NCBI GenBank assembly: GCA_031835245.2
Contig: JAVKOQ020000023.1
Span: 62,001 to 126,000 of the forward strand
Length of the DNA stretch: 64,000 nt
Origin: Balamuthia mandrillaris
Lineage: Eukaryota
Reading direction: 5' to 3'
Position numbers and translations under genes: made by a program. A model generated the notes under the pieces. That model made no database searches. It saw nothing but the letters and a program-made list of their open reading frames with translations, and was not told where the DNA came from. Positions 42,283-57,128 of this stretch are shown here, in pieces; position 1 is the first letter of the stretch; every line of letters starts with the position of its first letter.

Positions 42283-42457
42283 CTTCCTTTTCTTTCTTTC
42301 ACTGGAAGGACGACAGTTCAACACCAGGTAAAGACACTTATGTTTTGTTAAAATAGGTACTCACGTTCGACACTCGGTATTAGCAATTTCTTTTTAAATT
42401 AATAATTGAAATTTTGACATTAAATTTTTCTTGGAATTTTTTTTTAAAAAAAGAGAA

Positions 42458-43063
42458 ATGGAAGATGAAGGAGGAGGTGCTGCAGCACCCATTTTTTACT
42501 CGGGAGAGGAGGCCTCTGGCGAATACGGCGCGTTCTCCAACAGAGCCGCCTTTGCGTTCGAGCTGGATGGCAAGCGATGGCCCACCGTTGAGCACTTCTT
42601 TCACGCCCAAAAGTTTGCAGGCACGGACCACGAAGAAGCCATCCGAAACGCCAAAAACGCCAACTCTGCTCATCGGTTTTCTTCTCTCTTCTTGTTTTTT
42701 TCTTGCTTCTTCTTCTTCTTCTTCTTCTTCTTTCTTCTTCTTCTTTACAAGTTGAGTTCCAACACAAACAGAATGGGGAGAGACCGTTCTCGGCCGTTGC
42801 GAGGCGATTGGGAGCAAGTCAAAGAGCAGGTGGCAGAGAGAGGCATCCGCGCCAAGTTCCAGCAGCACAGCGAGCTACGACGGCTTTTGTTGAGCACCGG
42901 CGACAGACCCCTTGTGCAACGCACCCGCAATGACGACTATTGGGGTGACTCTGGCAAAGCCAACGATCGTGGTGGGGTGCGGGGACAAAACGTAATGGGA
43001 CACATTCTTATGAAAGTACGAGCGAGCCTCATCGAAGAAGCAGAAGCAGAAGCAGAGAAATAA
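42458..43063 (+). CDS. NADAR (YbiA-like N-glycosidase) family protein
   Basis: YGAFSN, WPTVEHFFHAQKF, LRGDWEQVK, AKFQQH..L..LLLSTG, DDYWG, GQNVMG.ILMKVR. One intron. Confidence 0.93.
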   Translation: MEDEGGGAAAPIFYSGEEASGEYGAFSNRAAFAFELDGKRWPTVEHFFHAQKFAGTDHEEAIRNAKNANSAHRFSSLFLFFSCFFFFFFFFFLLLLYKLSSNTNRMGRDRSRPLRGDWEQVKEQVAERGIRAKFQQHSELRRLLLSTGDRPLVQRTRNDDYWGDSGKANDRGGVRGQNVMGHILMKVRASLIEEAEAEAEK

Positions 43064-44598: not shown

Positions 44599-44804
44599 CG
44601 CGTCTTGTGGATCGCTACTCTTTTTTTTTTCTTTCTTTCTTTCTTCTCAGACGATAAAAACAAAATTATCGATTTCTTATCACCATTTGGTAAAAAAATC
44701 GAATGGTTTGCAAATAATTATTGGTCTCATCGAGAAATAGGAATTTTTCGAGAAAGTCTTCGATAATTACAATAAACTACACAAAATTTTCGTTTATTGT
44801 TTCT

Positions 44805-47893: not shown

Positions 47894-49628
47894 TTATTCT
47901 ACCCACTTCTTCACAAGAGATGCAGTCACTTCGATGCTTGGAAGTTCAAAGGAGGAGATGTAGTCTTGGAAAGGCTGAAATGCATCTCGTCTTTGGAGTT
48001 CCGCAAGGATACTTTGCGGAGTGCGATCCTCCAAGAAGAGCTGGATGAAAGCATTTTGGTATGCCTTTAACTCTTCATCCTCGTAAATCACCTCGTTGAC
48101 CCTTTCTTCCTTTTTCACTTCCCCGTCTTTCTCTTCTTCTGTTTCGTTCTCTTCTGCCGTAAGTTCTTTTCTTTTTTCCTCTGCTTTCCGTTCTTCTCTG
48201 AATCGCTTCACCACATCCAACATTCGACGATAATCAGCTCTTAATCGCTCCGCATCTTTTCCTTCGTCTTTGTCATTGTTGTTGAAAGATTCTTGGATAG
48301 TATTACCGATTCGTTCCAGAATAACGACCTCCACGTTAGGACACATCCTCAATGCCAAAGGTAGAGCCTCTTCAAAGATAACCTCTGGCACTGGGCCTGT
48401 AATTTTTTCAGTTAAAAGTAAGAAACTCGCTCTCTCTCTCTCTCCAGTGTGCGCACTTCTAACTTCCCAATTGAAAAGAAGGAAGATCGTACCATCATGA
48501 GTATCTCTTCGAAAGGCTTTTGGTCTATCGGTGGAAGAATCAGAAGAGGAAAGAGGATAAGACCAAGATCCACCAGAGATGTGAATGGCATGCACTCTAT
48601 CCAAAGGATACAGCCTCAACGCTTCCTCCCAGCTCTTCAACCCAAAGTTCCACAACTGGCAGTACAAATTGTGCAAGTCCAACAACATGATGCCGTTCTT
48701 TTTCGTCTTCTTCGTCTTTGCTGAATGCTCGTCTTCTTCCTTCTCTTCGTTATGTTCATCTTCATATTCTTCTTCATCGATGGCCCGAATGATGTCCAGT
48801 ATCATGGTGCCTTGTGAGAGAACGTCTTGCATGCCCATGGCCAATGCCAGGTTCTCCAAGCCTATGCCCTTCACTCCTTTGCCTGCTGCCTTTGACAGCA
48901 TTCGTAACCTTTCTCTTGCAACTTTTACTCCTCTTTTTTGTTCAAAAGAATGATATAAGAAGATAAAAGAAATGGAAGGAAAGAATGGGAAGACGTGAAG
49001 GGCACAAACCCAGAAGTGTGAGGTTGAGGCAGAGGACAGCCAGACGTTGTGGAAGCGATGGTCATGAAGCCATAGTGTTCTGTAATGTGACGATAACGAA
49101 GTTGTTTGCATTCCTGTTTTAAGGACTCTATCCACTTTTGTTGAAAGAAGAGTCAATAATTTGCGAAAATGAAAAGAATAAGAAAGTAAAGGAAGAAGAA
49201 GAAGAAGAAGAAGAAGAAGAAGAAGAAGAAGAAGAAGAACCAGAAGAACAAGAACAAGAACAAGAAGAAGGAGAACAAGAACAAGAAACCTGAGCTTGTC
49301 GGCTTTGCCATTCGGCAGAAAGCGGAGAGAAGAGGACACCATGGCCAAAGAGCCTGTTCCTTTGGCTGTAGTCCTGCAACACGGCTTTTACCCATGGGTC
49401 AAAGTTTTTTCCCATAGCCCACCCTATATCCATGCTTTATTGTTTATTGAAAAAAAGATCAGTGTTGTTCTCTTCTTTGCTTTCTTGTCGTTACAGTATT
49501 TTTAAATACCTCCATTCAACTGCTTCAACTTGGCCGGCATCAAACAAAGGAGCAACAGCACGACGAAAGGAGCCGCCGGGCATCAAGGAAAGGCCGACCC
49601 ATGGTTTGCTCGCCTCCGCTTCTTTCAT
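47894..49628 (-). CDS. DUF692 multinuclear non-heme iron-dependent oxidase (MNIO), ChrH-like; 5 exons
   Basis: Spliced protein VGLSLMP..AVAPLF..VEAVEWS.D..RLFGHGV.FS.LSA.W..RQ.W..LK.E..YRHITEHYGFM..G.PLP..IGLENLA..LLDLHNLYCQ..NF..YPLDRVHAIHISGGSW..RRDTHDG.VP..VILER. All four GT-AG introns restore frame. Confidence 0.88.
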
Positions 49629-49807
49629 TCTCGTCTTCTGTTGTTACCAAAATTATTAAAATTTGTTGAAACAATTTTTTATAGAATAAGATAATTGTCG
49701 ATAATCAGTAAAAATGACAGCCTTCGATATTTTTTCGATATTATGAAGCATTCCATGATTTTATCGAAATTGTCTCATTATTAAAAATCAACAGAGATAG
49801 GAGAGAG

Positions 49808-50504
49808 ATGACACGATTTTTGGTGGCTGTGGATGGCTCTGAGAACAGTTTCAGGGCCTTGGAGAGAACGCTCAAGCTGCACAAGCCAGGGGACTCCTTG
49901 CTCGTTGTGCACGTGGTGGAAACGGGTCTTCTGCACAAAGCCAAAGTGGGTAGCCATGCCCTATATCTAAAAAAAAAATTATTGCTTCTCTGTCACTCTC
50001 ACTCTCTCTCTAACGCTCGTTCTTGGTTGAAAAAAAAAAGTACATGACCCATGAAGAGGTGAGCGAGATGATGGACAACACAGCACAGCAGTTGGTCGCT
50101 CGAGCAGAGCAGCTCTGCAAAGATAGCAATGCTGTACCTACTCCAACATTTGTTTTTTCAACCTTATCATTTTTGGATTTGTTTTTGTTTTGTTTTTGAT
50201 GTTTTTAGAGCCGTTGTTTTTCTTTGCTTGTGTTTCAATGTTTTTTCTTATTTTTTTTTTTGTTTTTCTTTTGTTCTTTATTTTTTTTAAAAACAAACAA
50301 ACAACCATAAAGGCGGAAGCCAAGTGCCAGGTGGCCAAAGGCAATGATTGCAGAGAGAAGCTCATTCGTCTCTGCGAGAAGAACGAGATCGATGTCTTGG
50401 TCTTGGGCAGCAGAGGCAGCGGAGCGGTGGCCTCCCTGCTGTTGGGCAGCACCGCCGACCATTGCCTCAACAACGCCCATTGCTCCGTCTTTTTGGTCAA
50501 GTGA
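49808..50504 (+). CDS. Universal stress protein (USP-A-like)
   Basis: FLVAVDGSENS..AL, GNDCREKL, IDVLVLGSRGSG.VASLLLGSTADHC..NAHCSVFLVK. Confidence 0.93.
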
Positions 50505-50557
50505 AGATTATTCTTCGTTTCTTTTTGTTGACAAACAAATATTCGATATTCGATGAA

Positions 50558-50664
50558 TGTCGACAAATAAGATGACAAACAAAGTTGCATTTTTGTCGAC
50601 ATGATAATATAACATTTGAAAAATGTGAAGAATTCGATGCTGTCGACAAATAAAATCTGTCGAC
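50558..50664. promoter_or_regulatory. Cluster of four TGTCGAC(A) palindromes upstream of the AGC kinase
   Basis: Sites at 50558, 50594, 50641 and 50658. The same 8-mer recurs upstream of other genes (14608, 16942, 19542, 56838). Confidence 0.55.
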
Positions 50665-54257: not shown

Positions 54258-55426
54258 TCATAGAAGAAAAGAAGCAGAATCATTCTCACTTGTAGAAGAA
54301 GAGGGTCGGCTTCGAGCAGCAGCAGCAGCAGCCCACCGAATGGAGTTCCTCAAATGCGGTTTGATGTCATAGGAGGAAAGTTCCGGGTGAGCGCTGAACA
54401 GGACCAGCCGACCGCTCTGCTTGTAGGTTCCGCAGATGATGGCCGCGGCGTCCATCATCGTTCCTTTCTGCATGCCCTCGCAGAGGAACTCGGTCCGAAA
54501 CGTAGCCAAAACGATCGGCTCCGACCATTCCTCTTTCTTTGCTTCCTTGGCAGGTCCAAACAACGGCCCGTTGGCATAATAATATTCCCAGCATTCTTCC
54601 TCTCCTTCCGTCTTCTCTTCTTCCTTCTCTTCTTTTTGTTGGAGCAGCAGCCGAGTGCCGGCTGCGGAGAGAAGGTGTTTGGCGCTGCCCATGCCGCGCT
54701 TCCAATGTTGGACGTCCACGACGGTGGCTGCCGACAGGCCGAATCGCCACTCGCCGCCGCCTTCCTCCTTGGCGCAGGCCAGGTGGGCGCCCGCGCAGGC
54801 TCCCACGTAGCCACCGCCGGCAGCGAGGAAGGCCTTGATCTGTCGCTTTCCCTCTGGTCCTATGGCTTTGGCATGTTGAGAGCCAAGACCTGGTTTTTTT
54901 TTTGTGTAAACGAATGGAACAAAAGTCCTCCTGTTAACCATACATACCACCACCGATCCAAAGAACGTCATAGCCCTCCTTTTGAAGGACTCCATCGGCC
55001 AGTTGCTCGGGGGTGACCTGAGTGACACGAAAGACGTCCTGCACGCGCTCCCTCAGCTTCTGCCATTTGGAGTCCGTCGGGTCGAGTTTCTCCATGAACA
55101 CGGCCATTTTGAGCTCCGGCTGGGAAGGGCCATAGCTTGTGCTCGTGGTTTGAGACTTGTTCAGAATGTTTCTTCTGTTAACAAAGAAGAAGAAGAACAA
55201 GAAGAAGAACAAGAAGAAGAACAAGAACAAGAAGCAAATGTAAGCTCTCTTCTTTGTCAAACGCCATGTAATGAAATCTTGGAAAGTGGAAATATGCTCG
55301 TGTGAACCTTAACGCTTGAAACTCGGAAAGCAGGGAAGAGCCTCCGCTGTCATCGTCCTCCTCTTCATTGGCGTGGACGTCTTGTTGGTTGGTCTCTTCG
55401 TGAGCCGCAAGTCCTTCTTTTTCCAT
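54258..55426 (-). CDS. BPL_N / class I glutamine amidotransferase-like protein
   Basis: YDVLWIGGG, G.RQIKAFLAAGGGYVGACAGA (nucleophile elbow) and LVLFSAHPE (His-Pro-Glu). Confidence 0.82.
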
Positions 55427-55899: not shown

Positions 55900-56437
55900 C
55901 AAGGCCGAGAACGAATGGGGTAATGAGTAACGTACATGGGGTCTAGTCGGCATGGAGTTCCTGCTCTGCTCAATGCGCTGGGCCAGGTTCTTTATCTGGT
56001 CCGCGTTAAGGTGCTTCTCCATCTCTGGAAGGATGTTAGATTCCAGATGCTCCATATGGCTCATGGTCAACTGCAAATAGCAGAACGTAAGAAGAAAGCA
56101 CACCAAACAAATGAGTGACAAAAGTACATACCCTGATAACTTCATTCAGGTTCGAGTCCCATTGAGTGTTGTCAGGGCTCAGCTTGGTGAGCTCGTTGAG
56201 AGAGGACTCGATGTTGAGGTTATCCTCTAGCGCCCTCCTGACCAGTTGGTCTCCGTTGGGAAGATTCTTCCTGATCTCCGGGTAGAGATGCCTGGTCTCC
56301 AAGTTGTTGTGAATGCAGATCTCCTTGATGAGCTCGTTCCCGAGGTTCTTCTTGTTCTCGAGGTCAGAGGAGGTCTTGTGCTGGTCCCAAAGCCTCTTGA
56401 TGTTGAGGTTATCCTTCCTGAGCCAAGATTGCAACAT
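55753..56437 (-). CDS. Hemerythrin (HHE)-like protein, 3 exons, partly degenerate ligands
   Basis: ELIKEICIH...E...LYP, SH...LE..ILP.M, and C-terminal MPTRPHPH.P...MAAP.DR..D, typical of HHE-domain proteins. Confidence 0.8.
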
Positions 56438-57128
56438 TGTGGTGTAGTGTTATCAAGCGTTGTCGTAGTAGTTGTTTGACGAAAACAAAGTGTCGTTTGA
56501 ATCCGGTTTTTATACAGGAGGTTGCCGGGGTTGTCGCCTACCAAGAAGATCAGGAGTGGCCGCTGGATTTCGATGGATTGGGTTGCTCCAATGGCGTTGC
56601 TCCCAATCATATAGCCCCACCAATGGGAGGCATGGCAGGGGTGCCTTTTCATCAGAATTTCCAGCAAGGGTGTTGCAAACAATCGGTTGACCCGAACCGA
56701 ACCGAGTCAACGGGAGCTTCTACCCCGAGAAACCATGTGGTCCGCACGGGGAGGCCGAAGGGAGATGCCCATGCCCATGCTCTCCTTTGTTTCTTTGCTT
56801 TTGCGTAAAATTTCTCCACATTCGGGACGTCACGAATTGTCGACAATGGAAGAAATGTATCCTTTTTTAGGCCATCATGCCCAGAAATAGAGAAAACATC
56901 CTTCTCAGCAAAAAAGCACAGGGAAACACAGCTGCTTTTTTTTTTTTGTTTGTGGGGAGAGAGAGGGAGAAGGCTGCTGCTGCTGAGTGAGCACATACAT
57001 ACTAAAGAGAAAAAAAGGAACCCTTGAAAACCTCCTCCCACTTGCCTCCCTCCGAACTATTGTTTGGGTCGAAAGAACAAGTTTGAATTCGCTTAGGCCA
57101 CCTCAGCTGAGCAAATTATTACAAGCTA

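Follow-up and report, generated by a model that had tools for sequence, protein, structure and literature searches.

Why does a gene for an MNIO, an enzyme type called bacterial in the papers cited below, lie in the genome of the amoeba Balamuthia mandrillaris, and what would its product act on? The gene occupies the minus strand of a 64-kb stretch of contig JAVKOQ020000023.1 (positions 62,001 to 126,000), referred to here as the window. We give a probability of about 0.5 to the reading that it encodes an intron-bearing ChrH/DybH-type enzyme, acquired once, which would act in trans on a host protein or peptide encoded elsewhere that has a tail of the CxxCG[MRL]G type.

When joined, the five exons comprise 1332 nt and encode 443 residues with a single terminal stop. 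The product is a letter-for-letter match to NCBI KAL6074639.1 (Balamuthia mandrillaris, "DUF692 domain-containing protein"), for which the DUF692 label is already public in the NCBI annotation. The 443-residue frame and its identity to this entry bear out the five exons and four frame-restoring GT-AG introns that a sequence-only reading of the window had proposed, and the (TTC)n tract that it placed in one intron sits in intron 2. The features of the locus are as follows.

49510..49628, minus strand: exon 1, residues 1-40, with the ATG at 49628; its joint to exon 2 was seen in RNA
49435..49509, minus strand: intron 1, 75 nt, GT..AG, spliced in three X7 reads and one X1 contig
49290..49434, minus strand: exon 2, residues 40-88, with Fe1 ligand H71
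49135..49289, minus strand: intron 2, 155 nt, GT..AG, with the (TTC)n tract; placed from sequence and alignment
49010..49134, minus strand: exon 3, residues 89-130, with Fe1 ligand H108
48933..49009, minus strand: intron 3, 77 nt, GT..AG, spliced in one X8 read and one X1 contig
48493..48932, minus strand: exon 4, residues 130-277, with E156, an acidic insert at about 181-207, D215, N218, H247, D273 and H275
48397..48492, minus strand: intron 4, 96 nt, GT..AG, in frame and stop-free; placed by comparison with homologues and by the NCBI model, which is identical
48418..48478, plus strand: antisense intron, 61 nt, GT..AG, inside MNIO intron 4; joint in one X1 contig
47894..48396, minus strand: exon 5, residues 277-443, with E304, a charged linker, the C-terminal helical bundle and the stop
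47900..48082, minus strand: MelHc-like helical bundle, residues 382-442, fused; four helices in the structure model

The evidence for splicing comes from reads and contigs aligned to the locus, none of the runs listed as containing it being recorded as RNA. Joints were reported only from at least three reads or a contig; one that fell at a repeat was discarded, and the repeat in intron 2 was skipped by the joint-calling method. Between 3 and 5% of each raw-read run was sampled, and one of the three (X9) gave 0 reads. The predicted splicing was seen in RNA for introns 1 and 3. Introns 2 and 4 come from the alignment, with no RNA joint listed for either at low depth (37, 43 and 0 reads on 3.4 kb), and runs X3-X6 gave unspliced contigs and no splice joints. 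We infer that intron 4 is removed, because its retention would split the DTHDxxVP motif, which is contiguous in homologues, and because the NCBI model is identical. A 61-nt skip was considered as an alternative intron 4 and rejected, since it has GT..AG borders on the plus strand only and would break the frame. The same joint indicates a spliced antisense transcript overlapping the MNIO gene, perhaps from the convergent phosphatase gene with an extended 3' end.

The MNIO gene is flanked by eukaryotic genes. Pfam domains in the window ORFs of at least 110 aa (102 of 218) include kinesin, KRR1, RhoGAP, calpain, PP2C-LRR, a DSP phosphatase and a universal stress protein (USP), whose gene is spliced. 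The immediate neighbours are the DSP phosphatase gene, which is convergent, and the USP gene, which stands head to head with the MNIO gene. A gap of 179 bp separates the MNIO start codon from the USP gene (49808-50504, plus strand), whose first intron is joined in seven reads and a contig. TCGA words reach 4-5 per 200-nt bin at 44601-44800, 49601-49800 and 50401-50600, where the mean is 0.5, and two of these three bins are AT-rich (29% GC); such bins may mark promoters. Elsewhere in the window we observed NADAR (42410-43060, plus strand), BPL_N (54261-55052, minus strand) and hemerythrin (56039-56449, minus strand) domains.

The assignment to DUF692/MNIO made from the sequence alone held against the PF05114 profile, with 53.4 bits relative to a gathering cut-off of 25 (E 2.9e-14). 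Within NCBIfam the ChrH model NF050165 scored highest, at 245 bits compared to 34 for BufB, 26 for HvfB and 16 for ApyH, and the best Atlas matches were ChrH-type clusters. Thus, judged by its sequence, the Balamuthia enzyme is a ChrH/DybH-subfamily MNIO. It does not reach the NF050165 equivalog cut-off of 600 bits, and its named relatives among bacteria (Melainabacteria and Arsenicibacter) also fall short, at 303-362. The suggestion that the protein most resembles Chryseobacterium ChrH therefore survives at the level of the subfamily and fails beyond it: a joint clade with Chryseobacterium was rejected (p-AU 9e-6) and, together with the score of 245 against 600 bits, this rules out ChrH proper.

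DybH binds its irons through H65/H102, D179/H210 and D228/H230, and mutation of these residues blocks or stalls the reaction (bioRxiv 10.64898/2026.10.27.762324). They correspond to H71, H108, D215, H247, D273 and H275 of the Balamuthia MNIO, so that all six are retained in a proper alignment, and every motif named in the sequence-only reading (GHGV, TEH, GLEN, LLDLHN, IHISGG, DTHD and ILER) is present. The DybH ligands recur at the same spacing in all seven Bacteroidota homologues that were compared, with a shift of +1 to +2 for the last pair. E156, N218 and E304 are found in 149-150 of 150 alignment rows. At 48 positions that are near-fixed (at least 95%) in 263 other rows, the Balamuthia protein keeps 44, departing at G135A, F173M, F211I and E245A. 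Position 245, two residues before the Fe2 ligand H247, is Glu in 98% of other rows and Ala, Thr or Gln in six of the eight eukaryote-type rows that cover it.

A structure model built with a 150-sequence alignment reached a pLDDT of 90.7 and a pTM of 0.91; a single-sequence fold (pLDDT 45) was not used. The model was most similar to TglH (8hi7_B, Z 24.0, rmsd 3.3, 271 residues aligned) and MbnB (Z 23.6), with non-MNIO barrels at Z of 15.6 or below, in a comparison that scarcely covers residues beyond 346. The predicted architecture is a TIM barrel of the MbnB/TglH type with ligands for up to three irons. Pfam found no dehydrogenase domain fused to it.

The sequence-only reading had noted neither a visible partner nor a precursor. 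The first part of this needs amending, since a partner-equivalent domain is fused at the C-terminus. Residues 382-442 share 31% identity over 61 aa (E 4e-10) with a separate small ORF that lies behind a split bacterial MNIO (locus L004). In the Melainabacteria system MelHc is a required helper of about 8 kDa, a C-terminal helical bundle that occurs fused or separate (PMC13056109). By this match, the amoebal enzyme has its own helper built in. ChrH and DybH function without ChrI, which is dispensable (PMC13056109). Since the subfamily works without ChrI and the helper is fused here, the lack of a visible partner is no puzzle. The Pfam scan of 102 of the 218 window ORFs contained no DUF2063 or DoxX.

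Where did the gene come from? Its nearest relatives are P0004 from Pellita catalonica (EukProt) and proteins from JGI and Logan. Scanning with an HMM in full brought in P0191, P0299 and a second EukProt protein, P0271. In a careful tree of 63 chosen rows (8 eukaryote-type, 38 named loci and 17 other proteins), which omits P0299, the intron-bearing fragments and any outgroup from another MNIO subfamily, the eight eukaryote-type rows form one clade with support of 95/95 and no resolved sister. Support varied with sampling. The first FastTree gave four of the rows an SH-like value of 29, and quick trees were less tidy: P0039 fell outside the clade in one, and P0271 fell among Bacteroidota in another FastTree. 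A signature in the C-terminal bundle occurs in seven of nine eukaryote-type rows, the Balamuthia protein (P0001) being without it, compared to 0 of 309 others. Two members of the clade carry species names, Balamuthia mandrillaris and Pellita catalonica, which we take to group together in Centramoebia. NCBI places both in Discosea.

Several metagenomic fragments resemble these proteins. Intron-like inserts are read through after LALAM in P0318, P0345 and P0335, and similarity ends directly after the EEAxKR helix in P0318, P0345, P0333, P0334 and P0335. The places of these inserts are common to the fragments and are not used by Balamuthia. Judging from the inserts, the fragments are probably further intron-bearing eukaryotic copies.

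Identity between eukaryote-type members is 36-42% and does not exceed that to bacterial cores, in keeping with an old transfer. As the gene is common to Pellita and other eukaryote-type sequences, its acquisition is, on this comparison of sequences, old and not specific to Balamuthia. The proposed horizontal acquisition from bacteria is supported, and a single old transfer from a bacterium into an ancestor of several amoebae is likely. As donor or sister, Chryseobacterium was rejected by the test given above, and a grouping with Myxococcota is compatible with the data (p-AU 0.46). FastTree and one quick tree placed the clade near Melainabacteria, another quick tree among Myxococcota. No Acanthamoeba-named homologue appeared in the protein searches, which left 113-175 aa and more than 776 aa uncovered, so that absence is not implied. 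Seven pattern matches in viral contigs included no relative. Between strains we found 9 synonymous and 11 non-synonymous differences, none at a ligand, which lean to silent changes (pN/pS 0.33, p 0.015, pooled over different samples with few reads). We conclude that this known subfamily has a real eukaryotic branch, which is old and has become detached from its operon.

What the detached enzyme might act on is best approached from its bacterial relatives. At 74 of 80 bacterial loci an upstream ORF within 5 kb ends in CxxCG[MRLTQK]G; three of the remainder end in AACG[MR]G and three have none, and an opposite-strand control returned 0 of 7125 ORFs. In the 64-kb window, no ORF ends in CxxCG[MRL]G in any of the six frames or in a check for tails split by an intron, in agreement with the earlier observation that no precursor is linked. 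Assignment to a chryseobasin/DAG-RiPP gene cluster was discarded, there being no adjacent CPxCGxG precursor in the window. An Atlas search with the precursor tail as query gave no usable match.

Separation of enzyme and precursor is also seen in bacteria. We searched four whole genomes, namely the three in which no motif is linked to the enzyme and a complete chromosome, and in three of the four an orphan precursor ending CPACGRG lies away from the enzyme, each genome having a single ChrH-type gene. These orphans (L161, L162 and L166, at G001:C17, G002:C1 and G004:C1:4407101) end DPCPACGRG, and that of G004 is 1.07 Mb from the ChrH-type gene. By inference, they provide a precedent for action in trans. 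One of these genomes, G001, also encodes a protein of more than 500 aa ending CTGCGMG (L167). Modification has been reported for an internal motif as well as for one that ends a 34-kDa protein, and the minimal C-terminal motif is argued to be what is recognised (PMC13056109).

Other bacterial loci show how the system varies. At eight loci (L024, L054, L061, L104, L111, L121, L143 and L145) the MNIO or its helper carries a fused zinc alcohol-dehydrogenase domain, and at all eight the precursor ends in a single-Cys xxxCGRG, compared to two Cys at 126 of 128 other motif-bearing loci; the three named cases are all Myxococcota from one clade and are not independent. This suggests that the dehydrogenase-fused loci make a different product, for example a reduced thioaldehyde or aldehyde. 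At the Melainabacteria-type loci L010, L014, L019 and L027 the precursor ends CLGCGMG, and an 830-aa gene on the opposite strand lies between it and the enzyme. The precursor at L032:4687-4983 has a leader that we take to be NHLP/Nif11-like and a tail that reads CALCGQG; downstream of it lies a large ABC-transporter-like gene. This locus may link a ChrH-type enzyme to another route of export.

We propose, at roughly even odds and by analogy, an amoebal MNIO pathway that would place a hydantoin and a thioether macrocycle on the C-termini of the amoeba's own, probably secreted, proteins. Exon 1 encodes no hydrophobic signal stretch at the N-terminus, which suggests a cytosolic enzyme; it would be a monomer loading two to three Fe. 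It would bind a freshly synthesised substrate, probably destined for secretion, at its tail and use O2 to turn the second Cys into a thioaldehyde. A hydantoin would then form with the following residues and a thioether macrocycle would close with the first Cys, for a net change of -4 Da. These chemical steps are modelled on DybH, ChrH and MelH. The parts shown by the data are the gene structure, two of the four splice joints, the fold, the ligand conservation, the fused helper and the single eukaryote-type clade; the constancy of the motif at bacterial loci and the lean towards silent strain differences also speak for the proposal. Against it count a window without a precursor, the drift of eukaryote-type rows at near-fixed positions such as 245, the lack of the clade's bundle signature in the Balamuthia protein, the bacterial loci with single-Cys tails, the dependence of clade support on sampling, the small number of members with a species name (two) and the low RNA depth.

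A possible but less favoured explanation is a Cys-oxidising modifier retuned to another host sequence or product, for instance a single-Cys tail converted to formylglycine or a glutathione adduct. DybH gives either of these products when the enzyme or its substrate is slightly altered (bioRxiv 10.64898/2026.10.27.762324), and the bacterial relatives with a fused dehydrogenase already use single-Cys tails (8/8). The change at E245, next but one to an Fe2 ligand, is specific to the clade, and a eukaryote may have acquired the enzyme gene without its precursor. However, all Fe3 ligands for the full reaction are kept, as are the helper bundle and the 44 of 48 fixed positions, and the Balamuthia enzyme lacks the dehydrogenase. 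An enzyme with no host peptide substrate, working instead on a small molecule, in iron or oxidative-stress handling, or on the precursor peptides of eaten bacteria, would suit both the window without a precursor and the USP gene 179 bp away. We consider it unlikely, given that the enzyme falls inside the ChrH subfamily and keeps the bundle that MelH needs for its protein substrate. Prey peptides in particular would hardly be encountered in the phagosome by an enzyme with no hydrophobic signal stretch.

That the gene is a slowly decaying relic whose substrate has been lost seems improbable. Low read counts, low-complexity inserts, 11 amino-acid differences among strains and the lack of an Acanthamoeba-named match in protein searches could be read this way, but the frame is open and all ligands are kept despite the 36-42% identity between eukaryote-type members, the pN/pS is 0.33, and intron positions that differ by lineage imply long residence. 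Bacterial contamination or an assembly artefact is hardly credible, even with nearly all homologues being bacterial. Four spliceosomal-type introns, two of them spliced in RNA, and eukaryotic flanking genes uphold the original view of an integrated gene; the spliced reads already refute contamination, and unspliced copies with strain differences occur in another sample under the same organism label. The ChrH/DybH-type enzyme acting in trans on a host tail is therefore the explanation that we prefer.

Literature searches, which reached few subscription journals and did not extend to the enzyme lists in PMC13056109, found no paper on a eukaryotic MNIO. Some 14,000 MNIOs are described across bacterial groups in the accessible part of PMC12452194, and the available portions of its supplements do not contain "Balamuthia" or "Eukaryota". 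"Eukaryot" is likewise absent from the available text of PMC10214503, and DUF692, PF05114 and CGMG are absent from the Balamuthia annotation supplement of PMC10471605 (one file). The clade is preserved across several lineages of amoebae, each with introns of its own, which implies that a eukaryote uses this chemistry without the operon, and probably also without the bacterial lipoprotein route. If the proposal is true, the pathway would be the first RiPP or protein modification by an MNIO in any organism other than a prokaryote. It would also offer a eukaryotic system for learning the function of the ring, the role of the ChrH/DybH product being stated as unknown (PMC13056109). The expected chance occurrence of a C-terminal CxxCG[MRL]G is about 0.006 per 30,000 proteins, so that one match in the proteome would name the substrate. 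An active enzyme without a motif-bearing protein in the proteome would point to a new reaction.

DybH (Dyadobacter crusticola), ChsH, HymH and ArlH are fused ChrH-subfamily MNIOs (PMC13056109; bioRxiv 10.64898/2026.10.27.762324). The Balamuthia MNIO shares with them a TIM barrel with a fused C-terminal bundle, a KW-type tail, six iron ligands and the lack of a separate partner. Unlike them it is eukaryotic, has five exons and acidic inserts, has E245 replaced, and has no CPxCGxG precursor beside it. No counterpart of the bacterial lipoprotein route that finishes DybA is known from amoebae. The MelH/MelHc/MelA1 system of Candidatus Melainabacteria, a precedent in that a whole protein is modified at its tail (PMC13056109), is similar in that residues 382-442 are homologous to a MelHc-type ORF, as tested with L004. 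It differs in that the Balamuthia helper is fused and no MelA1-like gene lies beside the enzyme, and Melainabacteria are not resolved as sister. Chryseobacterium ChrH (PMC10214503; NF050165) provides the best NCBIfam model, with 245 bits against 34 for the next, whereas a score below the 600-bit cut-off and the rejection of a joint clade separate the two; in that system ChrI and SAM methylation were later found to be dispensable or spontaneous. The closest solved folds are those of TglH (PDB 8HI7) and MbnB (PDB 7FC0, 7TCR), with Z of 23-24 and identities of 16-21%. Unlike the Balamuthia enzyme, these need a separate TglI or MbnC and are without the C-terminal bundle.
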